From NCBI GenBank assembly GCA_016933575.1, contig JAFGAR010000169.1, positions 1 through 17,619 of the forward strand: a stretch of 17,619 nt of DNA, read 5' to 3'. The notes under the pieces are model-generated. The model had not been told where the DNA came from. It did no database searches and saw nothing but the letters and a program-made list of their open reading frames with translations. Numbering within the stretch: the first letter of the stretch is position 1; each line of letters begins with the position of its first letter. Positions 997 to 17,594 of the stretch are shown in pieces. Source of the DNA: Candidatus Thorarchaeota archaeon (GTDB lineage Archaea; Asgardarchaeota; Thorarchaeia; Thorarchaeales; Thorarchaeaceae). Made by a program: the position numbers and the translations under genes.

Positions 997-2628
997 TCAT
1001 GAATGTACGTTTTCAGATGCTGATTCCACTTCATGTCGTATTATCTCTTCACTAATGAATTGGCGAACAGCTGTCTTCAGATCCGCACTGACATACAAGC
1101 TCGGTGCCTTTTGGATATGTTCCCGTATCATCAAGATCGAACTCCTAGGAATGGAGAATGGCAAATATCGATTGATGAGGAAAAGAGCATCTTCGGATCC
1201 ATTGCCAGCTGCCTGCACCAAGCTCGACATGAAACTGCCGATAGGAATGAAGAAGGTATCTTGAATCGTCTTTAGAGAAGATGCGCCTTGAAGCGAAAGG
1301 TGTGACACTGTGCCACAGGTATAGTTGTCTATTGGTGCTGATGTTCCTCTACGTTGAATTGTCGATGGAACGGAGTCACTTTTTATCGCATTGATGGATT
1401 CGCGGACATCTATGATGCCTGTTCCTTCCTTCATTGGATCCAAACCAATGCTCTTTGCTGTTGACATGAATGCTCTCTTCACGAAATCCGGAAGCTCTCT
1501 CCCCCCGAATTCAAGCCCCTTCTCTTCAATAGCATTGAGTACGAGAGCGCAGGCCCCCGCTACATGAGGTGTTGCCATGCTTGTGCCCTGCATTCCAATG
1601 TGATATGGCTCAAAGGTGCATGTATTTCGATTGCATCTTCTTGATCTCAACGATATGATAGCACTTAGACACCCACCGCCACCGCCTCCCGGAGCAAGTA
1701 TGTCCGGTTTACATTGCATACCCAATACAGGGCCTTTTGAAGAGAAATCAGAGAGTGTTTTACTCTTTGTACAGGACCCAACTGTAAGAACACTCTCAAT
1801 GCATCCGGGACTCCCAACGGTCCCCCATCCCTGTCTGCCTTCATTTCCTGCAGCCACTACGCAGATGATTCCAGCAGATACGATCGCCTCCATGACATGA
1901 GCCAAAGTAGATGGTTCAGTGGTTTTTCCACCCAGGCTTGCATTGACGATCTGTGCTCCGTTATCTGCTAGCCACTTTGCACCTTTTGCTATAGTCGAAT
2001 CCCAAGAGGAGCCTCCATCATTTCCAAATATCTTTGCACTGATTAGCTTGGCTTTCGGTGCTACTCCCATATATTTAGAACCGCCACTCGCACATATTCC
2101 TGCGACATGTGTACCATGCCCACAGCCATCCTCTGTGCCTTCACCATCAATGAAACTTGTTTCATTGACAACCTGCAGCTCTGAAAACGAGCTATCAACA
2201 CCTGTATCAAGTATACCAATCGTTACACCCTTTCCTTGATATCCTTCATGCCATGCCTCTGGTGCGTGTATCTGACCCACGGATACATTGAGGCAGTGGA
2301 ACATTGGTATGTCAAGTGATGCTGAAGATGCTTTGCTATTCCCAACGAGTTGGGGCACTTCTGGAAGATATTTAGCTTCCATCTGAACTGAGACCCGACT
2401 CATTCCTTCGATGATTACCGCATCCCTTCCAACATCTCCCAGAGGGCTGGAACGTAATCCTGTTGACTCTATTGCAGATTGTGTCTTTTGGTCATGAAGA
2501 CCACCTGAATAATCGATTCTCTCTGCAACTCTGCTGCCACTGAATGCTATGGACACAATTGTTTCTGGATAGTCCTTTGAGAGCGCAGACGCTGCTCGTC
2601 TGATTAATTGGATCCCAATATTATTCAT
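997..2628 (-). CDS. S8 (subtilisin-family) serine protease with N-terminal pro-region and C-terminal extension, no signal peptide
   Basis: Intact triad motifs IGILDTG (Asp codon 2206-2208), GHGTHVAG (His 2116-2118) and GTSMATPHVAG (Ser 1579-1581), plus oxyanion AAGNEG and FSSKGP...KPDILAPG. The ORF track starts at 2712. I prefer the ATG at 2628 (MNNIG..., 543 aa), which lies 4 nt after the upstream stop and follows AAGGGGGA. Confidence 0.93.
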   Translation of the reverse strand: MNNIGIQLIRRAASALSKDYPETIVSIAFSGSRVAERIDYSGGLHDQKTQSAIESTGLRSSPLGDVGRDAVIIEGMSRVSVQMEAKYLPEVPQLVGNSKASSASLDIPMFHCLNVSVGQIHAPEAWHEGYQGKGVTIGILDTGVDSSFSELQVVNETSFIDGEGTEDGCGHGTHVAGICASGGSKYMGVAPKAKLISAKIFGNDGGSSWDSTIAKGAKWLADNGAQIVNASLGGKTTEPSTLAHVMEAIVSAGIICVVAAGNEGRQGWGTVGSPGCIESVLTVGSCTKSKTLSDFSSKGPVLGMQCKPDILAPGGGGGGCLSAIISLRSRRCNRNTCTFEPYHIGMQGTSMATPHVAGACALVLNAIEEKGLEFGGRELPDFVKRAFMSTAKSIGLDPMKEGTGIIDVRESINAIKSDSVPSTIQRRGTSAPIDNYTCGTVSHLSLQGASSLKTIQDTFFIPIGSFMSSLVQAAGNGSEDALFLINRYLPFSIPRSSILMIREHIQKAPSLYVSADLKTAVRQFISEEIIRHEVESASENVHS

Positions 2629-2632
2629 GAAA

Positions 2633-2965
2633 TCAAATTCCCCCTTGATGCTCGATGCGAGATATGTGTTTGATTTCTTTGACAAAGCTCTGTTTGCTAA
2701 GATCTCTGACAATATCTGGATGCGCCTTGGCGAAGATAATTGGTAATGTGATCTTACCTTCTCTGGTCAGATAGTCATCAATATTCTGAAGTCCTAGTTT
2801 CGTCATTTCTATCTTGATATCATCGAGTTCTGATTGAGTCTTGTAGTCCAAGGTGATCGATAGTCCAATCAACATGTCTACAGCATCAGTATCTATAGCT
2901 TCTAGACTCTTTAGAATCGATTGCAATGTGGAGTCTATTTTTGAGTCTGATTTCAACTTCTTCAT
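2633..2965 (-). CDS. Small stand-alone protein resembling a subtilisin propeptide / inhibitor I9 domain
   Basis: 110 aa. Its ATG abuts the upstream TAG (2966) and it ends 4 nt before the protease ATG. The C-terminal IIFAKAHPDIVRDLSKQSFVKEIK follows the strand-helix-'VK.I' pattern of S8 propeptides. The CDS is well supported; the function is inferred. Confidence 0.65.
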   Translation of the reverse strand: MKKLKSDSKIDSTLQSILKSLEAIDTDAVDMLIGLSITLDYKTQSELDDIKIEMTKLGLQNIDDYLTREGKITLPIIFAKAHPDIVRDLSKQSFVKEIKHISRIEHQGGI

Positions 2966-3808
2966 CTATCCTGGAATTAGTCTATTATTCTCGAGGCTTA
3001 GTTTCAGTGGAAAATCGGCAAAGAAATGACGATAGGCTCTCAGAGTGACTATCAACAACTCTGGGGGTATCTCCTCAATATCCACAGATTCCATGGATTC
3101 AACAGCCTGAGCAATTCTTGATTCTATTGCATCAGCATGCCTGGAATACTTATCCCAAAATGCAACTCGATCTGATAAGACATCATCGGGAGTTACTGAT
3201 TCTGACAACTTTTCGATCAAGTCATCCAAGGTATTTTGAAGCTTCCCTGTATATCTTCCATTGAGCTTGAGAGCTGATAGTTTCTTTATGATTTGGGATT
3301 CTGATGTAGCCGCATCCTCAATTCCAGATTCATCTGAGCCTTCTTGTATGCTCCTTTCTAATGCATAGGATCCATTCGAGAGCTTGATAATATCTGGAGC
3401 TTTCTGACCTAATTGATACGAATTTATGCACTCATCATAGTATTTGTTCAGTAAATCTATAATCTGTTTGTCTGTTTCGCTGTTCCGTAGTCGATCTATT
3501 CGATCAACGACCTCACCAATTCTTAGGACTCTATCAGCTTCCTCCAAGGCAGGTAGGAGCATCGCATTGATGCTGCCAATATTCTCAAGAATTTTCTTCT
3601 CATTCGTTTCTTTTTGTAAATCATCGATTTTTTTCAGGATGAGTCCAAGAGCATCAACCTCAGTAATCCGTGAACCCTCAGATGAGAAGTAGTTCTTGAT
3701 TGGTCTTAGGTGGTTCTTGTGATACCAATACCATAGATTGCTTTGACTGGAAAGATCTGCTCTTGCCTTTTCTACCCTCTCTTTAAGTAAGAGCAGTTCC
3801 ATCTTCAA
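2966..3808 (-). CDS. Hypothetical all-helical protein with an acidic linker and a MIM1-like helix
   Basis: 280-aa ORF in the operon. A strong SD (GGAGGTGA) precedes TTG 3808, with an alternative ATG at 3802. No catalytic motif recognised. Confidence 0.8.
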   Translation of the reverse strand: MKMELLLLKERVEKARADLSSQSNLWYWYHKNHLRPIKNYFSSEGSRITEVDALGLILKKIDDLQKETNEKKILENIGSINAMLLPALEEADRVLRIGEVVDRIDRLRNSETDKQIIDLLNKYYDECINSYQLGQKAPDIIKLSNGSYALERSIQEGSDESGIEDAATSESQIIKKLSALKLNGRYTGKLQNTLDDLIEKLSESVTPDDVLSDRVAFWDKYSRHADAIESRIAQAVESMESVDIEEIPPELLIVTLRAYRHFFADFPLKLSLENNRLIPG

Positions 3809-3828
3809 TCTCTCACCTCCAACATATA

Positions 3829-4488
3829 TTAGGCTTCATCTTCGAAGCTAATCTTTGTGTCCTCTTTTTCGTCTCTCTTCGCTGGAGTTCCCTTGGATTT
3901 CCTGTATGCATCAAGCTTCTTTTGCCAATCAGGATGTAATTTTGCGCCTCTTGCCTCCAAACGGATGAGATGATCAATTGATGGTTCTTTGCTTTCGCTC
4001 CTAGATGGCACCGAGCTTATTATAGGTGTCACACCTCTTGCAGCTTTGTACTGCTGACGAGCTTCACTGAGTATCTCTCCAACCTTGGCTCTGTCTGCCA
4101 ATGTTTTTCCGGTCTTCTTCAGCTGATCCTTTACAATAGTCATTATCTCTCCGTCTTTAGCTCCTAGTCTTTTTTCGATGACCTTGATATCTCTTTCACT
4201 TTCCTTGATGTAGCGCTCTGTAACCAGCACAGCTTTGTTTTGTTCTAATCTATCGATAGTGTCTTCCAATTCAGGTGGGGGAAGAATTCCCTTCATCGTG
4301 TAGTCGTTTATCTCTTTCAATGCTAGGTCAATCTCGTGTTGAACTTGGGCAATGGATTTTGATAAGAAATGGATCTCATCTGCATGCCTTAGTATTACAT
4401 CATTAGCTTCTTCACAACGTTTACGAATCTCTTTGTCTTTGAAATCATCACAGTCCATAGTTCTGTCTAACATTCTTTCACTTCCCAC
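3829..4488 (-). CDS. Hypothetical coiled-coil protein, possibly a second divergent ESCRT-III/PspA-like subunit
   Basis: 219 aa. The GTG start overlaps the ATPase stop by 1 nt (TAGTG). Two long heptad-like helices are joined by KGILPPPE, followed by a disordered charged tail. Confidence 0.75.
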   Translation of the reverse strand: MGSERMLDRTMDCDDFKDKEIRKRCEEANDVILRHADEIHFLSKSIAQVQHEIDLALKEINDYTMKGILPPPELEDTIDRLEQNKAVLVTERYIKESERDIKVIEKRLGAKDGEIMTIVKDQLKKTGKTLADRAKVGEILSEARQQYKAARGVTPIISSVPSRSESKEPSIDHLIRLEARGAKLHPDWQKKLDAYRKSKGTPAKRDEKEDTKISFEDEA

Positions 4489-5651
4489 TAATTTGTCTTC
4501 ATTGACGCATGTGTCTTTGCGAACTTGTCATATCGTTTCTTCATTTCAGGAGTTACTGTTGGCTTTATTTTATGTATGGCATCCTTGAAATGTTTCATAG
4601 TGATGGGCAAGTCCGTTACCCCTTTCTTGTCCTGTTCTCTCACAACCGACTTCTTTGTGATTGTACAAATTTCAGTAATTGCAGCTGAGCTGTATTCGTA
4701 CCCTCCGACTGGCCTTGTCATTGTAACTAGATCATTGTAATCCACGCCCTCAATTTTATTGCCTCGTAGCCCGATTTTGAACACCTCTTTTCTGGCTGCA
4801 TCATCTGGAGCTCCAACATAGATGATCTGTGATACTCTACCTGGTCTGATCAATGCTGGGTTTATGTTCTCAGGCTCATTAGTAGCTGCAATAAAGATGC
4901 TCTGTTGCTCATGGCCACTGAACCCATCCAATTGGGTGAGAAACTCATTTGTCGTTCGTGTCATTACTTGCGTTGAGTCCGATCTTGATGATTCGGATAG
5001 TAGTTTGTCAATCTCATCAACGAACAGAATTGATGGAGCTAATTTCCTTGCACAGACGAATGACTTCTCTGCTTTCTTTTCCGTAGCGCCAACCAGTGAT
5101 TCAAGTAGCTGACTAGCTGAAACGATTACTGCCGGTAGACCGAATTCGCCTGCCAAGCATTTGACAAGATATGTTTTGCCACACCCTGGAGGTCCGAACA
5201 ATAGAATTCCTGTCTGAGATGGGATACCTCTTCTCTTGAACTCATCTGGATATTTCAATGGCAACTCGATTGCATCCCGGAGTTCCATTTTCACTTGTTC
5301 CATACCAGCGAGGTCATCAAAACAGAATTTCGAGAATTCGACATATCCACCTGACTCCTTGCAAATATCTGGGATTTCCTTTGACCGTTGAAATCGGTCA
5401 ATCTCGATGGAATCAAATTCATCTCCTTCTTGTATTTGCGCACTACCAGATATCTCATTCATGATTTTGAGAATTTTCTTCATTATATTCTGCGCTACCA
5501 CTCTTTGCTCGGAGTTAGCTGATTTGGCATAGATTTTCAAAGCACCAATAGCGCGCTGATAGTGCATCCTTGCAAGTTGCTTGTTACCTTTCTTCCTAGC
5601 AGCATCGCCAAGCTTCTTCTCTTCCACTGCCTTTTGATATGCCGTACTCAT
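4488..5651 (-). CDS. MIT-domain single-ring AAA+ ATPase (Vps4/CdvC-like architecture)
   Basis: N-terminal three-helix MIT-like segment (AYQKAVEE...GNKQLARMHYQRAIGAL), Walker A GPPGCGKT, Walker B ILFVDEID, sensor-1 AATNEP, arginine finger ALIRPGR and a Vps4_C-like tail (HFKDAIHKIKPTVTPEMKKRYDKF); 387 aa. Confidence 0.9.
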   Translation of the reverse strand: MSTAYQKAVEEKKLGDAARKKGNKQLARMHYQRAIGALKIYAKSANSEQRVVAQNIMKKILKIMNEISGSAQIQEGDEFDSIEIDRFQRSKEIPDICKESGGYVEFSKFCFDDLAGMEQVKMELRDAIELPLKYPDEFKRRGIPSQTGILLFGPPGCGKTYLVKCLAGEFGLPAVIVSASQLLESLVGATEKKAEKSFVCARKLAPSILFVDEIDKLLSESSRSDSTQVMTRTTNEFLTQLDGFSGHEQQSIFIAATNEPENINPALIRPGRVSQIIYVGAPDDAARKEVFKIGLRGNKIEGVDYNDLVTMTRPVGGYEYSSAAITEICTITKKSVVREQDKKGVTDLPITMKHFKDAIHKIKPTVTPEMKKRYDKFAKTHASMKTN

Positions 5652-5671
5652 ATCAAAGCCCTCGACCTAAA

Positions 5672-6319
5672 TTATTGAAATCCAAAATCCTCGTCAGCTT
5701 GCTTTTGCGACTTCTTGTCAGGTTGGTTATCAGCTGTGTCTTCCTTTTCATCACCCAGATCCGCATCGATTTCTCGATAGAGCTCTTCTAGTTCCTCTTC
5801 TTCGAATTCATAATCGATTTCCTGATACTCTTTCTTCATCTCTTCTTCAGTAATTTTTTGCATCTCATCAATCTTTCTGAGCTCCTCTGTTTGCCGAAGA
5901 ACCAGCTTCATCAGCTCACCATCTGCCTTCTTGATAGTACGATAAATTCCTCTATCTACCTTTGCAACCTCCTTTAGAATTGGCATGACCTTGGTCATAT
6001 CAGGAATGATTCCTTCATTCAAGAAATCTCGTCCTTCCTCAAGATTATCAAGATGTGTTTCAAGCTTCTCACGTGCATTTCTTACTGCGGAGTAGTAATT
6101 CTCAATGACCCTTTCTGCCTGCTTTCGTGCCTTATATTCTACGACATCAGAAGGAGTAGGTCTTCGCTTGGCCTCTCTAGCCTCTATCAATCTGTTCCTT
6201 GTTCTGGTCAATCTGATACGATTATCGATTTTAGCATCACGAAGTGCATCTTCTTGGCTTTCTAAGCTATTCACTTTCTTTCTTAGATCTCGCTTCTGCA
6301 ATAATTTAATACGTGCCAT
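5672..6319 (-). CDS. ESCRT-III (Snf7/CdvB/PspA superfamily)-like helical protein
   Basis: 215 aa, a typical ESCRT-III size. Basic N-terminal helical hairpin, acidic C-terminal half with a helix-5-like EFEEEELEELYREIDADLG, and a disordered tail. It lies 20 nt upstream of the MIT-AAA gene. The CDS is clear; the family call is inferred from pattern and context. Confidence 0.68.
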   Translation of the reverse strand: MARIKLLQKRDLRKKVNSLESQEDALRDAKIDNRIRLTRTRNRLIEAREAKRRPTPSDVVEYKARKQAERVIENYYSAVRNAREKLETHLDNLEEGRDFLNEGIIPDMTKVMPILKEVAKVDRGIYRTIKKADGELMKLVLRQTEELRKIDEMQKITEEEMKKEYQEIDYEFEEEELEELYREIDADLGDEKEDTADNQPDKKSQKQADEDFGFQ

Positions 6320-6353: not shown

Positions 6354-6594
6354 TTACCTGCATTGTAGAGAATGAGAAACATCCTGCTAATCTTCTATCC
6401 TATGTAGAATCATCATTACACCGACATCTCCTCATTCCCTAAGTGCACAGCTTACAAATACAAGACAACAAAATAAATCCTACTAGTGGATATTTGTTGC
6501 AACAGAAATAGTCCAGATATAACAGGAATCGTTATTATAGACCGATTTCATAGAATACTAGCGGTAGTTGTTCCACTAGAGAGGTGTGCGGTGT

Positions 6595-7599
6595 TTGTCA
6601 GAGGACTTCGATCTAATAGATATCCTAGCAGGATTCATCTTATTTCTCCCGTTTCGGGGAGCAATTACTTTCTTTCAAGCAGTATACGCAGTGGCAAAGT
6701 ACTTCGGTAAGCGAAAGCCAGAGAAGAAGAAAATAGTAGTCGAGAATGCCCTGAACCAGATCAAGGCCAACTTAGATCAGATCGCCAATCTAACGCTGAC
6801 AGATCTTTCATGTCCTATTGATGATATAGTAAAAAGGAACATAGACTTCGAAAATCCACTTGTAAACATCTCAACATCTCTTGAGAACTCAAGTCTTCGC
6901 GGCATTTATATCAAGAAGTATGAATCCGTGCATCCTCATATTGCCTACTGCTATGCTGCATCTGATTTCTCTCGAAAGTTGATCGAGAGTCTTTGTGTGA
7001 GAATCTCCAAATCCGTTGATGATAGACATGTCATTATTGTAATGCTCCAGGTGAAGGAGATACTGAAAACAATTCAAATGGTCACAAAGAGAATCAAAGA
7101 GTTATCTTCAGAGGATGAAAAAGTCAGCTCGGATATCCTTTCCGAACGTTTCCTCAATGAGATTTGCCATCTGGATATCGCGAAACGATTGGTAGAAACC
7201 TATGGCTTCGCATTCATCCCAGCACATCTGACTAATACAGAATATCTTGAGAACCCCCTGGTGCTACGAGCATTGTTCGAAGATCATCTCCTGGAGTTTC
7301 TGAACGACCATCCTCAAACAAATCTGAATCAGCTCGCAAAAGGATTGAATATCAAAGAAGAACTATGCAGGACATTATTCTTATCTTTGGAGTTTGACTC
7401 TGAGGTTCATCCTCTCCTACTCAAGAATGATGAGATTTGGCATAGCGCGATTCTCCTTGAGAATCTAATGAACGAAACTATGAGAAACCCGAAGGAGATA
7501 GTGAAGTGGGCTGATGACCTGGGGATAGACTATGCGCTAGCCTCAAGTCTTTTGATAGATGGAATGATTCAGCAGGTATCAGATTCTCTAGTGAAATAG
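6595..7599 (+). CDS. Hypothetical protein with an N-terminal membrane anchor, helical middle and C-terminal winged-helix-like region
   Basis: The ORF track starts at GTG 6586, but SD GAGGTG (6581-6586) with an 8-nt spacer favours TTG 6595. Hydrophobic ILAGFILFLPFRGAITFFQAVYAVA is followed by basic KYFGKRKPEKKK. LLEFLNDHPQTNLNQLAKGLNIKEELCRTLFLSL...LL..DEIW follows a wHTH pattern. Confidence 0.8.
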   Translation: MSEDFDLIDILAGFILFLPFRGAITFFQAVYAVAKYFGKRKPEKKKIVVENALNQIKANLDQIANLTLTDLSCPIDDIVKRNIDFENPLVNISTSLENSSLRGIYIKKYESVHPHIAYCYAASDFSRKLIESLCVRISKSVDDRHVIIVMLQVKEILKTIQMVTKRIKELSSEDEKVSSDILSERFLNEICHLDIAKRLVETYGFAFIPAHLTNTEYLENPLVLRALFEDHLLEFLNDHPQTNLNQLAKGLNIKEELCRTLFLSLEFDSEVHPLLLKNDEIWHSAILLENLMNETMRNPKEIVKWADDLGIDYALASSLLIDGMIQQVSDSLVK

Positions 7600-7601
7600 A
7601 A

Positions 7602-10523
7602 TCATCCATTATGAGCAAAAATGGTTGCACTCTTCATCTGATTCCACTCTCCACAGAATGGACATTGTATTCTAGCAGTGTCTTCCCTTATTTGAACAAA
7701 TCTTGATAGTTCTGGGTATTTTGCTTCATCCCTGATAGCAGATATCACAAAATCTATCCTATAGCTACCAAGGGGTTTTCCTTCCATTGACCAATTCCGA
7801 ATTTGAGATCTGCACCCTTCGCAACGGTATGGCGATTCATTGAGTCCTTCCAAATAGCTCTTGATGGAATTGAAAATACTCGCTATTCGATCTTTCATTG
7901 CACTAGGTGCATATACCTCACCCTTTACCCACGGCTCAAGTCCTTTGCCTCTCGAGGCAATTTGGATTGTTGTCATTATATAGGATGTCTTCTCAGGAGA
8001 GCTCGGGAAAAGGAGATGTTTCTTTACTGTTTCTGATTTCCCAACTTCAGCTAACGAGATCGAGTTGAATGAAGATAGCTCTCGGTCTACAAGAATTTCT
8101 ATTTCCTCTCTTAGCTCAGCTCGGTCATTAGTTGTTTCAATCATTACTCGTACATCATGAACGCTACGGTCATAATTCTCCGCGGCATATGATATGAAAT
8201 CGGTCAAAGAACGCTTGCCGATATATCTGCTGATCTTCGGGAATGGGAATATCTTCGGACCAAAGGTAGTTTCTCGCCAAGTTCCATCCATAAGAATACT
8301 GTATGTTGCAGATGCTTCAATCTGAATCTCTCCCGATACATATCCATAGATATCAAAGACAATCTTTGCTGTTCCATGAGGTGCAATCCCCCCGATCACA
8401 TGCTCATAGCTAGTTTCGAGATGAATGGGGCTAAGACTTGCTGATATCCCTATCAAATTGGCTATGAACCGGATATTTCCTATCTCCGTTTCTGCGTCAT
8501 TCCTCACCATGAACGTTATCTTTCCATGATTCGCTATTTTTTCGAAGTTCGGTTCGAATGAAACTTCTCCTATCAATCCCTTTCCACATTCAACCTTTTC
8601 ATCCTTGGCTTTATTCTCTATTATCTTTTTGAGGTGGTTATCAAGTTCATATGAATTTCCAAGAATCTTGAAAGCATCTTCTATCGTTTGATCGAATCTC
8701 AGAGTCATTTTTCTATAGGATTCACATACCTCCTGCTGAGTATCTCTTTTCAGAGTCGCTTTATTTCGGTATTCTGAATATACTTGAAATGTTGAGTCTA
8801 GTATGATTCTGTGTTTGTCCATCATTCCAGTAACTAGCTTTGCTGAAAGTAGGTCCTTTACATAGCTCAAGACAACAGCACCTTCTCTCACTGTGTTTAC
8901 CATAGAATTGAATGCTGTTTCGTCTATCTCCTTCGACAGGAGAACCTTGCAATTGGCAATAACATCAGAGATTTTCGAAATGACCAAGGTCAGTATTTTC
9001 TCAACATGTGCATTAAATATGCTGTCGAGTTCATTTGACACATTTTCATGTGAGGATGAAGCAGACTGACGAATCCTCGAACCCAATCTAGAGATGTGAT
9101 TGATTACCTTCTGATAATTGCCCTTGTCCACATTTTCAATCACTTCGACTTCAGTAGAGTCTATCTCATCGATGATGTTCTCCTTGAGATCGGTCTCATA
9201 GCGACTCTGAATTTCATCTATCTGAGCAGTCAATGTCTTTGCTTGTTGAACTTTTATCTGATCGGGATGAATCTTCATGACTTCTCCCCACATTCTTCTG
9301 GCATTCCCGAGTCTGACAAGTACTTCATCCGTTTCCATTCCTGCTGCCCAGCTCATATTGCCATTGAACAAGTTCAAAGCTGTCTTGTAGAGAGCATCTG
9401 GTGATCCTTTCACGATAAGTGCCTGAAGTGACTCCTTGATGAGATCCTCAATATGATAGAAGATAACAGATTCCTCAGTTTCCGGAAGGTAGACTCTTCT
9501 TGAATTTCTGATCATACTCCCTTCAGGCTTGATTTCACACAGTTCGGTTATCATACCCGGGTCTTCTCTACCTGGTGCAATAGCATGTGGGTCAACAATG
9601 AATAGATGGATGTCTCCGTCTCCTGCCCCCAGTGCCAAGTGTAGCTTCTCCTCTCCTTCTTCTTCATGTATCGCTACCAAATCTGCAGTAAAGACTCCAC
9701 AATCAATAATCCTGTGCAGATTCTCAGTCCATTGGAAGGTCTTCTCACCCGTATGATAGATGAATTGCGCTTGCCCTGAGATGTCTACTCCAACTGCGAC
9801 AAATCCCCCTTGACTTAGCATTTTTGCTGAAATACCAGTGATTGGATTCTCAAATTGCATCTCACGGAGTGTGACACTTACCCTGTTGTAATATGTTCTA
9901 ATTTTCGCTTTATGATCTCCACACGCCGCAACAAAGACCACATAATTTCTCTGATTACTGACATCAACGTAGGTCTTCACTACATCATGACTTGTTTCAG
10001 ACCCCTCGAAAATAAGATTTGGCTTTAGACGGATATAATCCTTGGTCGTTTTTTTCTCATCTGTTTGGAAGTATTTCACAGAACCATCTTCTTGGACTAT
10101 CATCAATTCTGCTCTTCTATCTCTATCAATATCGAAGCTCTGAATTTCCATACTTGGTTTCATCGACATTCCAGTGTCGACTCTGATATCCTCAAGGCTT
10201 ATTCCATCGTCCCGAACTATGATTCTCTTCATTAAGACAGATTCGCCAGGACCCTCTAGCATTGCCAGTTCCAAGCTTTGATCGCCATCGAAATCTCCCA
10301 ATGCAATAGAAAAGATCGGTCTATTCACTTGCTCTTCAAACACTTTGTCAAATGAGTGTCCATCTGAAATATACCCCCAGAGAGGATATTTCTTGCGATC
10401 TATTCCCATCTCGATATGTGGTTCTGGAGCGATGAAAACGATGATTCTGTTCGCCTTTGGTTTTGGATCGAAGGCAGCGTCGAATGCCATAATACGAAGT
10501 GGATGCTCATCAGTGGGATCCAA
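7602..10523 (-). CDS. Large multidomain protein: FG-GAP/WD-like beta-propeller, helical region, Ig-like sandwich, alpha/beta platform-like region and C-terminal zinc ribbon
   Basis: 973 aa (985 aa if the CTG at 10559 is used). FG-GAP-like IALGDFDGDQSLELAM and FDIDRDRRAELMIV; WD-like LALGAGDGDIHLF; Ig-like GKITFMVRNDAETEIGNIRF...IAPHGTAKIVFDI...GEIQIEASATY; CEGC and CPFC pairs. Confidence 0.85.
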   Translation of the reverse strand: MDPTDEHPLRIMAFDAAFDPKPKANRIIVFIAPEPHIEMGIDRKKYPLWGYISDGHSFDKVFEEQVNRPIFSIALGDFDGDQSLELAMLEGPGESVLMKRIIVRDDGISLEDIRVDTGMSMKPSMEIQSFDIDRDRRAELMIVQEDGSVKYFQTDEKKTTKDYIRLKPNLIFEGSETSHDVVKTYVDVSNQRNYVVFVAACGDHKAKIRTYYNRVSVTLREMQFENPITGISAKMLSQGGFVAVGVDISGQAQFIYHTGEKTFQWTENLHRIIDCGVFTADLVAIHEEEGEEKLHLALGAGDGDIHLFIVDPHAIAPGREDPGMITELCEIKPEGSMIRNSRRVYLPETEESVIFYHIEDLIKESLQALIVKGSPDALYKTALNLFNGNMSWAAGMETDEVLVRLGNARRMWGEVMKIHPDQIKVQQAKTLTAQIDEIQSRYETDLKENIIDEIDSTEVEVIENVDKGNYQKVINHISRLGSRIRQSASSSHENVSNELDSIFNAHVEKILTLVISKISDVIANCKVLLSKEIDETAFNSMVNTVREGAVVLSYVKDLLSAKLVTGMMDKHRIILDSTFQVYSEYRNKATLKRDTQQEVCESYRKMTLRFDQTIEDAFKILGNSYELDNHLKKIIENKAKDEKVECGKGLIGEVSFEPNFEKIANHGKITFMVRNDAETEIGNIRFIANLIGISASLSPIHLETSYEHVIGGIAPHGTAKIVFDIYGYVSGEIQIEASATYSILMDGTWRETTFGPKIFPFPKISRYIGKRSLTDFISYAAENYDRSVHDVRVMIETTNDRAELREEIEILVDRELSSFNSISLAEVGKSETVKKHLLFPSSPEKTSYIMTTIQIASRGKGLEPWVKGEVYAPSAMKDRIASIFNSIKSYLEGLNESPYRCEGCRSQIRNWSMEGKPLGSYRIDFVISAIRDEAKYPELSRFVQIREDTARIQCPFCGEWNQMKSATIFAHNG

Positions 10524-10555
10524 TAAGTCGAATATTTCCGAATAATGATTTGATT

Positions 10556-13500
10556 TCAGTGCTCTCCCTCCTTCGGATGCTCTAGTTTTCGTGCAGTCTT
10601 ATCTATACATTCTTCCAGTGGTCCTCTCATATCCTTAGGATACGCACCTGCAGTCCTTCTGACCACTTCATGGTAATTGTCGAATCTTCCATCACTGAGC
10701 AATTTGCATGTCTCTTCGAAATACTTGCAGAGATTTGGAATCTCCTTTGTCAGTTCCTCTCTTTGGATTTTTCTCCGCCAGTTGTGCACAGTGATTTCTC
10801 CTGTTGTTCTCAGCGTTTCAATAGTGAAATCCAGACATTTGGCAGGTTCTGTGAATTCCTCTTCCCTTTCTCTCATTATGCTTATCATCTCTCGAAGAAG
10901 AACTATGAGATGTGCGTATCCAGCTATATCTAACGTTTCTTTTTTCAAAGATGAAAGAGAACTATAAATCTCCGAGAGCCAAAATCCTTTCCCAATTTGG
11001 GGATGCAATCTAGGATCCCTTATCAGCTTCTCAAGACTATCAATGACATATCCATCCTGATTTTGACGTCGTAGCAATTTTGAAACTGCGTCTAAGGTAT
11101 GATCATGGAGAGGATTGATGTCCAACATCAAATTGACATAGTCTTGAATGATTGCAAGAACTTTCTCCTTCTCCGCCTTTTGAGTTATAGCGCTCAACGA
11201 ACTGAGATATACCTCCTTTCTATCAGCGGCAAGGTCTTGAACAAATCTGGAGGTCCAATCAATAGACTCCGTTTCCACGAGAACATCAGTGTATATTTCC
11301 ATAATACTGCATAACGTATCGGTAGGTAGAGGAATTTTCCTTATTTCTGAAGTTTCTAGTATGTCTCTGAGGATTCTTGCCTTATCCAGCGGACTATTCT
11401 TTGGATTCTCAAGAAATGATTGGATGACAAGCCTCCCAGCATCTGGAATACTCTCCTTTGGAATATCTTTTATGGTGTCCCGTAGATCCCTCCAAATTTC
11501 CTCACTTCCTTGCCTTTCTATTCTAATACTATCTTTTATTTTAAAGTAGATATGCAGAGCTTTGCCAGGTTCATTTTTGATGCATCTATTGAAGACCTGT
11601 TTTAGCTGCTGTCCAATCTCATGTTTGTAAAGATTAGATGTCTCTTTCCTATCTCTAATCTTGATTAGCCAATCGACTGTGAAATCGAAGCCCCATATTT
11701 CTGAAGTAGACTCGACCAAATTCTCAAGATTCATATCTCTGCTACTTTCAGTCAAAGGAACGATGTACTTGTTCAATTGCTTGAAGTATTGTTCTCTGAA
11801 ATCTTCTGTCAGTCGCTGTTCATCATTAATGGCATCAGTCAGACTGGATAGATATCGTAATGCGAGATGTATCTGTTCTCCTTGAAAATGAGTGCTTTTA
11901 GTGAATTCGAAAATTCTCTTATTTCCTTTCCAAGAATCAGCATTCTCTCTAAGTAGCTTGATTGTAAATGCTATTTCATTTGAATCTCCTATCTCAAGCA
12001 TTCTGAGCAGATATGTTTCTAGAAGAGCATCCCAATTTTGAATTTCAATCGCCTTCGAGTTATGAATTCCAATTGTGTACACAAGCCATTTCAACAATGT
12101 TTCCGAGTCCTTCCCGAAGAATCTGATCAGTGCTTCAGAATCAGTTTGCATTGCTTTCCCAAGATACTTGGGATTGGCTTCGGTCATGAACGATGATAGT
12201 GTGAGTAATAGACTGTAAATGATATTTGCTGATACATGTTCGAATAACTTCTCTCCTTCTTCCATGAAATATTTCCATGATACGATCAGAGTGGATTTCA
12301 ACACTCTTTCTTTAATTACCTCATCCAGTTTTGGATATCTACTCTTTAGTTCTCCAAGTGCCTTCTCGAATCCGTCCACATTTGCTTCAGTAAGCATATT
12401 GAGTGGAGATACTATACTGACAATTGATTCTGTGTTATTTGTTGAGAGGGATTTCAATGATACTAATAACATCTCGTAATTCTTGGGATTTGGAGTATTG
12501 ATGTATTGCTGAACAGCGAGTAACTCAAAATTCGCCAACCAACTATCTGGAGCATTTACCTTAGTAGTTATGATTGGTGATAGATATGACGAATATTCTA
12601 GAAACAAGAAAGGCTTTTCGAGAGATGATAGTGTTTTTTCAGCTACAGCGAGTACATAACTGGGATTATCAGAATTCGATTCAACGAGGAGATTCAAAGC
12701 AGGACCTAAAAAGGATGGGATTCCTGTTTCCAGATAATATAATGCAATCTCCATGAATATCTCTGACACATTCCGGATTTCTTTGAGTCCTTCTGGATGC
12801 TTCTGTGCTATGTCTAGTATTTCATTTGAGAATCTTTCTAATGCTGATGTTCTTACACTTTCGTGTTTCTTGACATGCTTCTCTAGGTTATTCAGGAGAC
12901 TCGCACTATGATTTAACAAGGCTTTGAGTTGCTTCTCGCTGTCCGTCGTCCGAAGTCTTGTGCTGATGAAAGCCAAGGCAATATCATATTGCTTATTTCC
13001 TAACAGCGTTGAACTTACCAAATCGAAGATGGAGTCTGACAGCTCGTCTGGGTAGTTAGTGAAAAAGGAATCAAATATTGGAAAACCATACTTTTCAATA
13101 GCATTCCGATTGTCTGAATATGCGATCTTTTCAAGCGATTGTTCCGCTGAGCTTCTTGGATTATCTAGTATCCTAGCATCCAAAATTCGGGTCATGTATT
13201 CACTCAGTACTTCTAGATCTGGATCTCGTGAACCAATATTCCGAATAAGATTCGATGTTGTTTGGTTAATGATTTCGAGTGTATTCGAATGATAGGTTCC
13301 TCCTAACAAATCTGCTACGATACCTGCGATTCTTTGCCATTCTGATGTTGTTTTTGCTTTGTTAGTGAGGATTCTAAGCTGAGTATTTCCTATTTCAGTT
13401 ACTATCTCAGGAAGTGATGCAATTTCACGCAATCTCTCTAGACTCTTCATATCATCTGTATCAATGAATTGATGTAGGAGACATTCAGAATAGAGTCTTA

Positions 13501-14977
13501 TTGTATTGTCCTGAAAAAGTCCGTTCTCATTCTCAGCAACCTCCCATGCCAATTCCTGAAACACATTCTTTGGAATTGCATCATTCAGCACTCCGATCGT
13601 ATCCATAAGATATTCATCACTCAGTACAAAATCGGCTTGTTCCAAAATAATTCTAGATATCGTAAGTGTTTCATTCATCTCCAGTTTTCTATCATGTTCA
13701 AGAATAAGCCTAATGATACTCTCCTCCATTCCTTCTCTATCCAACAGGAGCGGATGGAATTGCTCTTGCGAAAAGAGGTCCTGAATGATAGTTTGACAAG
13801 TGTCAAGGTAATCGATTGATGCTTCTGAGGAAGCTAACTCAAGAATCTTCTGCACAACAATATAGTATCTCTCGATATCAAGTGTCACCAGCACCCGTGA
13901 GTATCCCTTAAGCAGTGCTTGATGTTTCATCTTAATGAAACTGTCACAGCAATCAGCTGCTTCCAAGAATTTGATCAGCGCTCCGATGGGCGTTCGTTCT
14001 CCAATTTCATTAGCTTCTTCTAGTAGTTCTAAAGCCCTGACGTAATTGTTGATTTCAATTGTCACATTTTGATCATTGATTCCTGCTTCCTCAAAGGCTT
14101 GTTCAATTCTTTTGATTAGAGAAATAGCATCAAATATGGATTGATTCAGCATCTTTAGGAGCATACTTGAGAACGTGGCGTACTTGACATTCAATTTGGA
14201 GTTAGGTCTTGTTAGATCTAATACAGGTGTGGCGGGAGGGAGGCTCATCTCTAGACGACTGTAATTTGCCTGAGGTGTGATCAGTAAATTATAGAATTTT
14301 GATTCTATGTTATAGTCCATACAAAAGGTGTGCAATCCGATTTGGAATCTTATCGGGGCTGGAATCAGCTCGAGAATGATCTCTCCTAAGGTATCAGTGT
14401 CTCTATTATCGTCTGTGACAACTAACACTTGATTACCCTGAAGCAGGCCCTCTATCACATCAACAATCTGCTCGTTTCGAATACCTTCGCTGACAATCTT
14501 TGATGCAAGCTCAGAAGACATTTCAGAAATGATTGATTGTCCTTCCTCGCCCATTCTTTTACTGTACTTATCGATAATCTCTGAGAGGTCGATCGGAGGA
14601 AGTCCTTGATCTGCAATTCTCCTGCTTTCAGCTAGGTCTGCGTTTCGAATGAACGATTGTCGCAAATAGTATGGATTTCCACCCAACTTCTGATACTGGT
14701 TCTTCTTCATAAGAATCGTATGTGCGAAAAGCCGATTTGGTCGGTTGTCCTCATCAACCCCCGCGTTGAAGATATAGGTGATTGCCATTTGAGAATCTGG
14801 AACTTCATATGCAGTCATTGCATCAGTGAAGGTTATCTCCGGTGGGATTTGTCTTCGCAGAGAAGATCTTACAGCCACTAAATCTTGAATAGACTTTCTA
14901 ACACCGGTTTCTGCTATGATTTGAGCACCAGTACTTCTCGCGGTTTTGATTGATGTATAGGCGATTTGATCTATCAC
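10556..14977 (-). CDS. GTPase-associated protein 1 (GAP1-N2-like N-terminus, DENN-like middle) fused to a long alpha-solenoid
   Basis: N-terminal QIAYTS...GAQIIAETG and DEDNRPNRLFAHTILM match the GAP1-N2 pattern as I recall it (QLYYTS...G.Q...D..GR.GNFFAH). About 1200 aa of Leu/Glu/Ile-rich helical repeats follow. The ORF track starts at 15031. I prefer GTG 14977 (MIDQIAYTS, 1473 aa), which follows GGGGAGG plus 9 nt just after the upstream stop. Confidence 0.8.
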   Translation of the reverse strand: MIDQIAYTSIKTARSTGAQIIAETGVRKSIQDLVAVRSSLRRQIPPEITFTDAMTAYEVPDSQMAITYIFNAGVDEDNRPNRLFAHTILMKKNQYQKLGGNPYYLRQSFIRNADLAESRRIADQGLPPIDLSEIIDKYSKRMGEEGQSIISEMSSELASKIVSEGIRNEQIVDVIEGLLQGNQVLVVTDDNRDTDTLGEIILELIPAPIRFQIGLHTFCMDYNIESKFYNLLITPQANYSRLEMSLPPATPVLDLTRPNSKLNVKYATFSSMLLKMLNQSIFDAISLIKRIEQAFEEAGINDQNVTIEINNYVRALELLEEANEIGERTPIGALIKFLEAADCCDSFIKMKHQALLKGYSRVLVTLDIERYYIVVQKILELASSEASIDYLDTCQTIIQDLFSQEQFHPLLLDREGMEESIIRLILEHDRKLEMNETLTISRIILEQADFVLSDEYLMDTIGVLNDAIPKNVFQELAWEVAENENGLFQDNTIRLYSECLLHQFIDTDDMKSLERLREIASLPEIVTEIGNTQLRILTNKAKTTSEWQRIAGIVADLLGGTYHSNTLEIINQTTSNLIRNIGSRDPDLEVLSEYMTRILDARILDNPRSSAEQSLEKIAYSDNRNAIEKYGFPIFDSFFTNYPDELSDSIFDLVSSTLLGNKQYDIALAFISTRLRTTDSEKQLKALLNHSASLLNNLEKHVKKHESVRTSALERFSNEILDIAQKHPEGLKEIRNVSEIFMEIALYYLETGIPSFLGPALNLLVESNSDNPSYVLAVAEKTLSSLEKPFLFLEYSSYLSPIITTKVNAPDSWLANFELLAVQQYINTPNPKNYEMLLVSLKSLSTNNTESIVSIVSPLNMLTEANVDGFEKALGELKSRYPKLDEVIKERVLKSTLIVSWKYFMEEGEKLFEHVSANIIYSLLLTLSSFMTEANPKYLGKAMQTDSEALIRFFGKDSETLLKWLVYTIGIHNSKAIEIQNWDALLETYLLRMLEIGDSNEIAFTIKLLRENADSWKGNKRIFEFTKSTHFQGEQIHLALRYLSSLTDAINDEQRLTEDFREQYFKQLNKYIVPLTESSRDMNLENLVESTSEIWGFDFTVDWLIKIRDRKETSNLYKHEIGQQLKQVFNRCIKNEPGKALHIYFKIKDSIRIERQGSEEIWRDLRDTIKDIPKESIPDAGRLVIQSFLENPKNSPLDKARILRDILETSEIRKIPLPTDTLCSIMEIYTDVLVETESIDWTSRFVQDLAADRKEVYLSSLSAITQKAEKEKVLAIIQDYVNLMLDINPLHDHTLDAVSKLLRRQNQDGYVIDSLEKLIRDPRLHPQIGKGFWLSEIYSSLSSLKKETLDIAGYAHLIVLLREMISIMREREEEFTEPAKCLDFTIETLRTTGEITVHNWRRKIQREELTKEIPNLCKYFEETCKLLSDGRFDNYHEVVRRTAGAYPKDMRGPLEECIDKTARKLEHPKEGEH

Positions 14978-14996
14978 TTCATACTGCCTCCCCAAA

Positions 14997-15893
14997 TCAG
15001 AATGGACCCGAATCTGAAACCCACCCATCATGGTCTATTGGTGTTTCATAGAGATGCATTCCACCTCTGCTGCCTCCGTGTCGGTAGAATGGTTGATTCT
15101 CACTTTCAAGGCGTTGAAACCATATCAGTGGTTCAACGACATTCTTTGGCGCAAGTTCCTTCTTGCATCCCATTCCCTTCTTTTCTCTACCCATAACCCA
15201 TCTGAAGCCCCCGAGGGATGAAATCGGGAAGGTGACAAAACGTGTTCCTAGATGGGCTTTCAATCGTGTTATCAAATCACTGGAATGCTTGAAGAGGTAG
15301 GGATACGTATTATTGACATGTGGAAATGCATCTGATTTTGTAATAAGAAGTGCCACAGCTAGTTTACTCCAATCATCCCCATGAATTTCTTCTAGGGTCC
15401 TAACGATATTCTTTAGAAAAATGGTTTGATTATATCCATCCGCCTTGATGTCTGGATCCCAAAAGAAGATGAAATTCTGCGAAGATTTCATAAGATCCAA
15501 GATGAGCGAATCTTCCATTTTCAATTGAGTTTCATTCTCGTTTCTCAGGTACGCTCGAAGATTTCTGTAATCAGTTCTGAATAGTTGTTCGAGGTCTTCT
15601 CCCGAAGCATCCTTTGTCGAAACCCTCAGGACGTTTCTACCAGTGTGATCCTTCACCAGCATCCCCGCATCGTAAAGGTTACTCCGAAGTGTGGGATCTA
15701 GAAAACCATTCTCTTTTAGCTTCGTTAATTGATCCTTATAGTACATCTCAGAGTCATCACCTTTTGGAAAACTTACCAAGTAGTTTTGATATCGATAGTC
15801 CTCTGTCAATGAATAGTACAGAGCAATCAGATAGGTCGATTTTCCACTTGCAGGTGTGCCTAGAATGCAGACACTATCACTCCTAACCGCCAT
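14997..15893 (-). CDS. TRAFAC-class small GTPase (DO-GTPase-like), copy 3
   Basis: G1 GTPASGKST, G2 LDPT, G3 DASGE, G4 ITKSD, G5-like ISS and C-terminal LAPKNVVEPLIWF. Start taken as ATG 15893 (298 aa) after GGGGAG, overlapping the upstream gene by 11 nt; the ORF track gives 15971. Confidence 0.88.
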   Translation of the reverse strand: MAVRSDSVCILGTPASGKSTYLIALYYSLTEDYRYQNYLVSFPKGDDSEMYYKDQLTKLKENGFLDPTLRSNLYDAGMLVKDHTGRNVLRVSTKDASGEDLEQLFRTDYRNLRAYLRNENETQLKMEDSLILDLMKSSQNFIFFWDPDIKADGYNQTIFLKNIVRTLEEIHGDDWSKLAVALLITKSDAFPHVNNTYPYLFKHSSDLITRLKAHLGTRFVTFPISSLGGFRWVMGREKKGMGCKKELAPKNVVEPLIWFQRLESENQPFYRHGGSRGGMHLYETPIDHDGWVSDSGPF

Positions 15894-16734
15894 TTTTCTT
15901 CTCCCCTTTCTTGCTATCCAATACGATCTTGATAACCCAGAAGAGAGTTTCAGCAACTCCCTTTGGTTCAATTGGTGGATTTGGTTTGTACTCTATCTTC
16001 ACTTCTTGTCCATTATTGGTCTTCACAATTCTGGTCTTACCTACTCCACTGCAATTCATGATTGCGTATGCACCTAGATTCTTTTCATGGATACCCATGG
16101 TCACATGAAGGACCTTTCTGGCATAATTATCAAAATCTGGGAATTTTTCCTGATAGAGATCCCATTGTGTGAAGACAAAAAGGATGGGTGGCATCTTTTT
16201 TGGAGAATCGATGTTCTTTCTACTAATTATCTCATCAATGACCTCAGCACACATTAGATCCTGAGATGTATCGAAAACCAGTCTTTCTGAATTAGTCAGA
16301 TTCCCTTTTGGATCAATGAGAAACATGAACACATTGGATTTGTCAATCAAGCTCACTATCTTTTCTACATAGGGCCGATAGGGATTAAGCTTTCTTCGAT
16401 GCCCATCATGCCAGATAACACCATGTAATCCGGGCATGAATAGATCAGCAATCATCTCCCCTGGAAGATCAATGGTCCGATACGTGACATGGCCTGAGTT
16501 GTCATGCTTGACGATGTCGAATATCACTTGGTCATCTGCGAAGGCCTGTGTCGATGATGGCCATTCTCCACTCTGAAGCTCAGCAACCCTGTCCTCGATG
16601 TAGTCCTCGACGCTCCGAAGGTAGTAGCTACGATTGTATCGTTTCTGGATCTCGTAGACCAAGGCTGCTGCGTAGACAGTCTTGCCCGATGCCTTTTGGC
16701 CGAACAATGCAAGGTCGATGTTGATAGCAGTCAA
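15883..16734 (-). CDS. TRAFAC-class small GTPase (DO-GTPase-like), copy 2
   Basis: G1 GQKASGKT, G2 WPSST, G3 DLPGE, variant G4 FTQWD and C-terminal PIEPKGVAETLFW. TTG start in a TTGA 4-nt overlap, with SD GAGGAG. Confidence 0.88.
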   Translation of the reverse strand: MTAINIDLALFGQKASGKTVYAAALVYEIQKRYNRSYYLRSVEDYIEDRVAELQSGEWPSSTQAFADDQVIFDIVKHDNSGHVTYRTIDLPGEMIADLFMPGLHGVIWHDGHRRKLNPYRPYVEKIVSLIDKSNVFMFLIDPKGNLTNSERLVFDTSQDLMCAEVIDEIISRKNIDSPKKMPPILFVFTQWDLYQEKFPDFDNYARKVLHVTMGIHEKNLGAYAIMNCSGVGKTRIVKTNNGQEVKIEYKPNPPIEPKGVAETLFWVIKIVLDSKKGEKKNGG

Positions 16735-17594
16735 TTGTTCTCCTCATCCCCCTCTCTACTTTCGTCCTTTTTCCTACTATTCACAGAACTGATTATCCAA
16801 AAGAGTGTCTCAGCTACTCCTCTTGGCTCGATTGGAGGATTCGGCTTGTATATTGTCTTTGACCCTGTTCCGTTTCTGATTCTCTCCAGCTTTGCCTTTC
16901 CTATGCCACTACAATTCATCAGTTCATATGAGCCTAAATTTCTGGCATGCGTCCCGAGTGTAAAATGGAGGACCCTTCTAGCGTAAGTTTCGAACTCCGT
17001 GTACCTATTCTCATAAAGGTCCCATTGCGTGAAGACAAAGAGGATGGGTGGCATGTGATTTGATGTAGTCACATTCTTCCTTCTGGTAATCTCATGAATT
17101 ATTTCCATGCACATCAAATCTTGAGCTATGTCCTCGCTTAGTTGCTCGTTCTCATCTTCGCATCCTTTGGGATTGATAAGGAACATGAACGCATTGGATT
17201 TGTCAATTAGATTGCAAATTCGTTCTACATACTCTCGATACGGCCTCTTGCTTCTGAGCTCTTCTTTTCTCCATACAACGCGGTTCTCGCCAGGAATGAA
17301 AAGACCCTCGATGATCTCACCGGGAAGATCGATGGTCCGATACGTGACATGGCTTGAGTTGTCATGCTTCACGATGTCGAACATCACCTGTTCGTCTGCG
17401 AAGACCTGTGTCGATGATGGCCATTCTCCTCTCTGAAGCTCGGCGATCCTATCCTCGATGTAGTCCTCGACATTACGAAGGTAGTAGCTACGATTGTATC
17501 GTTTCTGGATCTCGTAGACCAAGGCCGCTGCGTAGACCGTCTTTCCCGATGCCTTTTGGCCAAACAACGCCAGATCGATATCTATCGAAGTCAT
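16461..17594. repeat. Direct repeat: 5' ends of the two paralogous GTPase genes (16461-16734 vs 17321-17594, offset 860)
   Basis: Manual ungapped alignment gives about 30 mismatches in 274 nt (~89% identity), including a perfect 50-nt run (16616-16665 = 17476-17525). Confidence 0.92.
16731..17594 (-). CDS. TRAFAC-class small GTPase (DO-GTPase-like), copy 1
   Basis: 287-aa paralog of copy 2 with the same G1/G2/G3/TQWD motifs. The ATG is preceded by GGGAGAGTGA. Confidence 0.88.
   Translation of the reverse strand: MTSIDIDLALFGQKASGKTVYAAALVYEIQKRYNRSYYLRNVEDYIEDRIAELQRGEWPSSTQVFADEQVMFDIVKHDNSSHVTYRTIDLPGEIIEGLFIPGENRVVWRKEELRSKRPYREYVERICNLIDKSNAFMFLINPKGCEDENEQLSEDIAQDLMCMEIIHEITRRKNVTTSNHMPPILFVFTQWDLYENRYTEFETYARRVLHFTLGTHARNLGSYELMNCSGIGKAKLERIRNGTGSKTIYKPNPPIEPRGVAETLFWIISSVNSRKKDESREGDEENN

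Follow-up and report, generated by a model that had tools for sequence, protein, structure and literature searches.

The 17,619-nt contig JAFGAR010000169.1 from Candidatus Thorarchaeota archaeon (GenBank assembly GCA_016933575.1), analysed at its full length and here called the window, was found to carry a set of DO-GTPase and GAP1 genes followed by a gene for a large protein, referred to below as the target. The target gene (7602..10559, - strand) was delimited from its open reading frame (ORF), its relatives and its ribosome-binding site (RBS), and encodes a protein with a predicted domain order of propeller, helical region, sandwich resembling the gamma-adaptin ear (GAE), platform and zinc ribbon. 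The window is one entire 17.6-kb contig (C160) of a 3.47-Mb metagenome-assembled genome (MAG) that is 85% complete and probably derives from a sediment metagenome. A search of this MAG for a 16S gene gave no match.

When read from a TTG start, the target ORF covers 7602-10523 (-) and encodes 973 aa. The frame remains open on to 10559, and the length would be ~985 aa if the protein begins at a CTG at that position. A GGAGG box is located 7 nt upstream of this CTG (10556-10575, -), and the CTG overlaps the GAP1 stop codon as CTGA. At this junction two homologous operons have ATGA, and in the third a GGAGG box of its own precedes a TTG start by 8 nt; the 12 residues upstream of the TTG hold a hydrophobic-F-x-hydrophobic motif common to all relatives. 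Because of the RBS spacing, the stop overlap as in the homologs and the conserved upstream motif, the CTG at 10559, where the initial annotation had placed the start, is probably the true one; such a codon implies either non-canonical initiation or an error in the assembly or in a base.

The target is a real gene, as four full-length relatives (937–991 aa, 23–41% identity) align with it from end to end, with 82 invariant columns. Relatives are scarce, and only three were found among 1.84 billion cluster representatives (P0003, P0004 and P0005, with 41%, 27% and 23% identity, respectively); a near-identical copy of P0005 is present in another Asgard MAG. A word-indexed homolog search returned the target itself as the sole match, profile searches added no further homologs, and a metagenome scan gave one match only, an unrelated FG-GAP protein. 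PADLOC and NCBIfam contained no match to the target, and no enzymatic motif was found in it by Pfam, NCBIfam or PADLOC searches. As neither a transmembrane (TM) segment nor a signal peptide was found, the target should be cytoplasmic.

The N-terminal part (9468..10559, -; residues 1–352 and the short N-terminal extension) is predicted to form an FG-GAP-type beta-propeller. FG-GAP_3 matches were obtained in all four relatives at sub-threshold to threshold scores (P0004, 35.1 bits against a cut-off of 26.9), and the profile of the relatives matched the CRTAC1 FG-GAP propeller (E 8e-4). In the ESM Atlas model of the target, 328 residues superposed on a 371-aa VCBS/FG-GAP propeller with a TM-score of 0.71 by target length. 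DxDxD loops resembling calcium-binding loops are present at residues 77–81 and 131–135. The propeller is the most conserved domain, with 52% identity to the closest relative as against 33% in the other domains. Pfam models for BBS proteins stayed below the cut-off of 27 bits (Beta-prop_BBS7, 14.5–16.2 bits; BBS2_Mid, 11.9–15.4 bits), the matches spanning 28–49 residues, or one or two blades, and ordinary prokaryotic FG-GAP propellers gave matches to these models like those of the target. The propeller is followed by a helical middle (8604..9467, -; residues 353–640), which matched no Pfam family. It was all-helical in a single-sequence AlphaFold2 (AF2) model of low confidence (predicted local distance difference test, pLDDT, 50–71 at best); a single-sequence model of the whole target (pLDDT 38) was not usable. 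Compared with the protocoatomer arrangement of a propeller and then an alpha-solenoid, the propeller is supported, while the ~290-aa helical part was modelled only at the pLDDT given above.

The C-terminal part was modelled with AF2 on a five-sequence alignment that included one relative of this part only (P0026, described below), and the model had a pLDDT of 79. It predicts a GAE-type Ig-like beta-sandwich (8226..8603, -; residues 641–766), with strands between residues 649 and 761, directly followed by a TBP-like alpha/beta platform of helix-grip fold (7839..8225, -; residues 767–895), with three helices and a five-stranded sheet between residues 773 and 893; this is the pair of subdomains found in adaptin and COPI ears. 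The chain ends in a C4 zinc ribbon (7605..7838, -; residues 896–973; CxxC at 901/904 and CPxC at 954/957) that was modelled at pLDDT 80–92, and all four of its cysteines are invariant in every relative, P0026 included.

In a Foldseek search of the PDB with the C-terminal model, the first 13 matches were 11 structures of COPI or AP2 appendage domains and two COPI coat assemblies. In all 13 the alignment covers both subdomains, whose order and connectivity agree with those of the model (E 1.3e-8 to 5e-6). The best appendage matches were those of COPI beta and gamma and of AP2 alpha and beta2, and FANCB/FAAP100, BBS7 and the GAE domain of GGA ranked after them. VIA-align gave a score of 12.5 over 222 aligned residues for a COPI appendage chain (PDB 9qpq_H), 12.1 for the GGA GAE domain (root mean square deviation, rmsd, 2.5–2.6 Å), 11.3 for the BBS9 GAE domain (15% identity) and about 9 for helix-grip proteins with the platform alone, and an exhaustive VIA search again ranked GAE and appendage chains first. 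A language-model search placed adaptin C-terminal clusters at ranks 10 and 11 with scores of 0.75–0.76, which is taken as a lead only. Sequence searches gave no sign of homology to adaptins or BBS proteins: the Pfam models Alpha_adaptinC2, Alpha_adaptin_C and B2-adapt-app_C did not match the target, and the five-sequence profile retrieved nothing relevant from all PDB sequences at E up to 10. Description of the protein as an FG-GAP-type propeller, a helical spacer, an adaptin/COPI-type appendage and a C4 zinc ribbon has good support.

These results bear out the fold observations of the initial annotation, which had been made from the sequence alone. Its beta-rich N-terminus of ~370 aa with FG-GAP/WD-like motifs corresponds to the propeller recognised by FG-GAP_3, CRTAC1 and the Atlas model, its Ig-like and alpha/beta segments (651–761 and 774–891) nearly coincide with the modelled ones, and its zinc-ribbon end is the one with the four invariant cysteines. 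It had also proposed that residues ~650–900 form a GAE and platform pair, to be abandoned if extracellular Ig domains of the CARDB type proved the better match; residues ~650–895 are indeed predicted as such a pair, and the structural match list is headed by COPI and AP2 appendages, not by CARDB-type domains. The parallel that it drew with the propeller, helix, GAE and platform order of BBS2/7/9 (PMC7018513) holds as well.

Upstream of the target, three DO-GTPase genes (14997..17594, -) are of two types, A (16731-17594 and 15883-16734) and B (14997-15971). Their scores for PF19975 were 35.9, 26.6 and 36.9 bits against a cut-off of 27, and DO-GTPase1/2 were their only Pfam matches. Both types are conserved in the related loci L004, L005, L007 and L076. 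In the window the type A gene is tandemly duplicated (15883-17594, -; 287 and 283 aa), while all related loci have a single copy of it, and the contig ends at the start of a type A gene, so that a gene for a 209–222-aa protein that precedes the GTPases elsewhere would fall outside it. The next gene (10556..15031, -), translationally coupled to the target, encodes a 1491-aa GAP1 with a GAP1-N2 and GAP1-M N-terminus and a long helical remainder. All four GAP1 orthologs matched PF20013 (GAP1-N2; best E 7.1e-6) and 3 of the 4 matched PF20014 (GAP1-M); the ortholog from genome G323 scored 27.9 bits for GAP1-N2 against a cut-off of 24, and the copy in the window was sub-threshold at 14.4 bits (positions 20–122). 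The order GTPase A, GTPase B, GAP1, target is kept in every locus, with overlapping stop and start codons. In G323 two contigs seem to join, as C60 (L076, 8230-10726) ends with a gene of the 337-aa family described below, a 210-aa gene and GTPase A, and the first genes on C118 (L007) are GTPase B, GAP1 and the target; when joined, the two contigs give the layout of L005.

Since the GTPases are DO-GTPases and the giant protein upstream of the target is a GAP1-N2/GAP1-M protein, the operon is assigned on its sequence to the GAP1-N2 ternary systems, as an Asgard-specific version. In such systems the GTPase and GAP1 form a constant pair while the non-enzymatic partners vary, an FNIII-repeat protein being the third component, and the systems were predicted by their describers, Kaur et al. 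2020, to be conflict systems of multicellular bacteria (PMC7159879). In the target no FNIII match was found with Pfam, and its single sandwich is of the GAE type, unlike rapidly evolving FNIII repeats. The operon GTPases had initially been viewed as small GTPases that recruit a coat, but Pfam places them in the DO-GTPase family and not with Arf, Arl or Rab. No sigma or mu adaptin subunits were detected at the locus in Pfam and PADLOC searches of the window proteins.

Full-length relatives of the target were present in 2 of the 400 Asgard species genomes (G000 and G323). None was found in 27 other genomes of the genus, and a scan of the phylum with the C-terminal profile gave nothing beyond G321 and G323. 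GAP1 N-termini were found more widely (13/400 genomes), and the gene that follows GAP1 differs between the Asgard loci. In G019 and G081 it encodes an unrelated 1107-aa protein, for which no homology to the target was detected. In G144 (L061, G144:C516, 819-4814, -) it encodes a 1331-aa relative of the 1107-aa protein, in which a BatD-like Ig region is combined with a PLD-like domain at the C-terminus (PLDc_2, 4.6e-16); judged from its sequence, this relative looks like an enzymatic effector in the position of the target. In G001 (L058, G001:C112, 3332-4549, +) a 405-aa propeller directly follows a 1013-aa GAP1-like gene and scores above the curated Pfam cut-offs for Beta-prop_BBS7 (47.7 bits) and Itfg2 (31.1 bits), and a weak match indicated an FG-GAP-like protein after GAP1 in G295. 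BBS7/ITFG2-type propellers are catalogued among the Asgard signature proteins. A related AAA ATPase (33% identity) and small coiled-coil genes were also found in these other Asgard GAP1 loci, one of which has an S8 protease as well. The genes flanking the related loci gave no informative matches that would point to a defence island.

The C-terminal part of the target was also found in a second context. P0026 (L036, G321:C15, 930-4529, -) is a 1199-aa protein with a signal anchor, an extracellular PQQ/FG-GAP propeller, TSP3 repeats and a TM helix, and its cytoplasmic part is the same sandwich-platform-zinc-ribbon module as in the target (hhalign 98.4% over 318 columns). Genome G321 is 98% complete and contains no GAP1 and no DO-GTPase above threshold. 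Since the module there follows a TM helix in a genome without these genes, there is good support for the ear and zinc ribbon being a separate evolutionary module. The neighbours of P0026 are homologs of the 337-, 215- and 219-aa families of the window and, weakly, of its 280-aa family, and a homolog of the 209–222-aa gene that precedes the GTPases in other loci is also located beside P0026. The 337-aa protein of the window (6586..7599, +) has an N-terminal hydrophobic anchor and a winged-helix/PCI-like C-terminus. Homologs occur in L004, L005, G323 and G321, that of G321 matching PCI weakly, and of 391 genomes searched, just three had full-length members, G000, G321 and G323, the same three that carry the ear module.

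A linked operon (997..6319, -), assigned by Pfam, NCBIfam and PADLOC searches, encodes a 215-aa coiled-coil protein (5672-6319, -), an AAA ATPase bearing the Pfam domain Vps4_C (4488-5651, -), a 219-aa coiled-coil protein (3829-4488, -), a 280-aa protein (2966-3808, -), a 110-aa protein (2633-2965, -) and an S8 subtilase (997-2712, -). The ATPase passes the Vps4_C cut-off (23.9 bits against 21.3), and its N-terminus aligns to CdvC over its full length. An identification as an IetA-type ATPase was rejected, as the matches were generic (93.9 bits against a cut-off of 510). Homologs of the 219-aa, 280-aa and S8 proteins adjoin the target in L007, a fragment of the S8 gene is found in L005 and a homolog of the 215-aa gene in L004. 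The S8 gene and its upstream companions are found with the target in both rearranged layouts, with genes of 280/336, 110/125 and 219/191 aa (window/L007), and the 280-aa family accompanies the S8 protease in both the window and L007 and, weakly, in G321. The 280-aa protein gave a weak match to VPS28 (E 0.015, residues 123–210). Assignment of the 215-aa family to ESCRT-III/PspA was supported neither by Pfam (E up to 5) nor by a profile search of PDB sequences. At their C-termini, members of the 215- and 219-aa families have short acidic tails that include an aromatic residue (in the 219-aa family, an invariant Phe), and either the MIT-AAA ATPase or the ear is a candidate binding partner of these tails. 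Of the features of archaeal ESCRT-linked loci, the appendage region and an AAA ATPase above the Vps4_C cut-off are present, and the coiled-coil neighbours are without a Snf7/PspA match.

Like the GAP1-N2 systems (PMC7159879), the target operon combines two paralogous DO-GTPases, a GAP1 with N2 and M regions and a large non-enzymatic partner, has linked variable genes that include peptidases, and is patchily distributed. It differs from them in its host, an Asgard archaeon and not a multicellular bacterium, in GTPases that lack N-terminal zinc ribbons and TM helices, in the replacement of the FNIII-repeat partner with a propeller-helical-ear-zinc-ribbon protein, in the ~1200-aa helical tail of GAP1, and in its linkage to a Vps4-like AAA ATPase, coiled-coil proteins and an S8 protease. 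Archaeal proteins with an appendage region were described by Makarova et al. 2024 (PMC10936438) as Meth_adaptin, Halo_adaptin and Asgard Vps28-C/appendage/longin proteins in ESCRT-linked loci. Compared by description only, they share with the target the IG and TBP-fold appendage region and a Vps4-like ATPase nearby; one type has a zinc ribbon, another an N-terminal WD40/PQQ-like propeller, and the TM-linked version is comparable with P0026. However, that paper mentions no DO-GTPase or GAP1 in those loci, and the target has all five domains in one chain.

BBS2/7/9 have the same order of propeller, helix, GAE sandwich and alpha/beta platform, and BBS2 has a propeller with motifs of the calcium-loop type (PMC7018513). 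Unlike these proteins, the target has a ~290-aa helical region in place of one dimerisation helix, ends in a C4 zinc ribbon and not in a coiled coil, and gives sub-threshold scores with the Pfam BBS models, much as ordinary prokaryotic FG-GAP propellers do; its GTPases are not like Arl6 (ARL6 recruits the BBSome), and no other BBSome subunits are present. The appendages of AP2 alpha/beta2 and COPI beta/gamma, a sandwich and then a platform with three helices and a five-stranded sheet, are the best structural matches. Unlike them, the ear of the target is not hinged to a HEAT/ARM trunk, being preceded by the propeller and the helical region, shows no similarity to them in Pfam or profile searches, and has another inter-domain orientation.

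From these comparisons we place at about even the chance that the target is a soluble cytoplasmic scaffold or adaptor in an Asgard DO-GTPase/GAP1-N2 system, coupling the switch to a membrane-proximal output module. In this mechanism the target is the product of the fourth, translationally coupled gene, after GTPase A, GTPase B and GAP1. The conserved propeller would dock on the GAP1/GTPase switch or on the sensed entity, and the ear and zinc ribbon may serve as a protein-interaction hub, by analogy with eukaryotic appendages, that would link the GTP-controlled switch to the membrane-proximal module of coiled-coil proteins, AAA ATPase and protease. The binding steps are proposed because of the gene coupling, the co-inheritance in two independent contexts and the known role of ears as hubs; that role is described for appendage domains, and appendage-like proteins of archaea are encoded in Vps4-linked loci (PMC10936438). 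As the system is rare and patchy and the gene in the position of the target is interchangeable, it is most likely an accessory conflict or membrane-stress system rather than part of housekeeping vesicle traffic. Genes of the DO-GTPase family are present in psp membrane-stress operons (PMC11237479), so that a role in membrane stress would fit. We regard the target as probably an adaptor controlled by the switch, and not as a proven precursor of vesicle coats.

Several points weigh against the adaptor role. The conflict role of DO-GTPase/GAP1 systems is itself a prediction, and interactions between the target and its partners are inferred only. The most conserved domain is the propeller, a poor fit to a fast-evolving sensor of invaders as proposed for FNIII proteins. 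The 215- and 219-aa proteins have no sequence match to ESCRT-III (Snf7) or PspA. The ear model rests on five sequences, and its two subdomains are oriented otherwise than in solved appendages (rmsd 10–12 Å over both). Patchiness was judged on MAGs that are 70–100% complete.

Alternatively, the target might truly serve as an adaptor for a coat or for cargo, as a prokaryotic equivalent of the BBSome or adaptins: the GTPases would recruit it and the GAP1 solenoid to the membrane, where it would select membrane proteins and pass them on to an ESCRT-like sorting machine made up of the coiled-coil proteins and the Vps4-like ATPase. This reading is close to the initial annotation, which had taken the target for a subunit of a prokaryotic protocoatomer-like coat, and to what Makarova et al. 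described as 'adaptin' ESCRT systems. It draws on the BBS2/7/9-like domain order, on the match of the ear to those of AP2, COPI and BBS proteins, on the adjoining ATPase with its Vps4_C domain and CdvC-like N-terminus, on the weak VPS28 match of the 280-aa protein (E 0.015), and on the Asgard host; in G321, moreover, a receptor-like membrane protein carries the ear module as its cytoplasmic tail, in which it is comparable with the published GOLD-TM-appendage proteins. However, the GTPases are not of the Arf/Arl/Rab kind, occurrence in 2 of 400 Asgard genomes is far too rare for core trafficking, and unrelated proteins, a PLD enzyme among them, take the place of the target after GAP1. The most constant neighbour is the S8 protease, the coiled-coil proteins find no ESCRT-III support in sequence, and the searches revealed no sequence homology to BBS or adaptin families. 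A coat adaptor is, on balance, unlikely, and the coat interpretation of the initial annotation, weakened by the very patchy family and the interchangeable post-GAP1 gene with its PLD-bearing version, exceeds the evidence, while its fold observation is confirmed. It is very doubtful that the ear module and the propeller-helix-ear architecture are true evolutionary kin of the BBS2/7/9, adaptin and COPI ears.

Two further explanations leave the ear without such a function. If the target were purely the sensor of a conflict system, its propeller and Ig domain would bind a viral or foreign molecule and signal to GAP1 and the GTPases, and the likeness to ears would have no mechanistic meaning. The operon position equal to that of the FNIII component, the lack of an enzymatic motif, the recurrence of FG-GAP propellers after GAP1 in G001 and weakly in G295, and the faster divergence of the Ig, platform and helical parts relative to the propeller agree with this. 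Yet the ear module is also cytoplasmic on a TM protein, in a genome without GAP1 and DO-GTPases and with the same linkage to the 337-, 215- and 219-aa families, which argues for a conserved internal partner and not a foreign ligand; the four sequences are too few for a test of diversifying selection. A pure sensor is distinctly unlikely. As an Ig sandwich and a helix-grip domain are two common folds, their succession might also be a coincidence or an artefact of modelling, in a protein with an unrelated role such as substrate or regulator of the S8 protease. The low TM-scores over both domains (0.22–0.37) with their rmsd of 10–12 Å, the five-sequence multiple alignment and the missing sequence-level signal would allow this, but the first 13 Foldseek matches are all appendage (11) or COPI coat (2) structures that cover both subdomains with the same connectivity, the exhaustive VIA search puts GAE and appendage chains first, and the language-model search, as a lead only, adds adaptin C-terminal clusters at ranks 10–11 (0.75–0.76). 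Coincidence is accordingly regarded as very unlikely.

Archaeal IG and TBP-fold appendages (Makarova 2024) and DO-GTPase/GAP1-N2 systems (PMC7159879) are already published; the searchable literature contained no case of an ear protein combined with DO-GTPases and GAP1 in a single Asgard operon, nor one of the five-domain chain. Ear domains are the interaction hubs of eukaryotic vesicle-coat adaptors and the BBSome. The Asgard case offers a complete propeller-helix-ear chain in a GTPase-switch operon with a Vps4-like ATPase adjacent, extends the predicted DO-GTPase/GAP1-N2 systems to archaea with a new type of partner, and provides a small, cloneable set of proteins for identifying the ligands of a prokaryotic ear and for testing whether their binding is under GTP control. 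Its patchy distribution and interchangeable partner gene caution against direct coat ancestry. If the doubtful kinship of the ears were true, Asgard archaea would already have had, at their membranes, a propeller adaptor with an ear, switched by GTPases and coupled to a Vps4-type ATPase, and accessory systems of this kind would be where eukaryotic coat adaptors inherited their ear from.

Last, the winged-helix/PCI-like part of the 337-aa protein (residues ~233–330) also matched proteins of ~790–800 aa from another Asgard family (f22; L068-L075), which may be the DDRGK/UFL1/PCI-type proteins from the Atlas search list.

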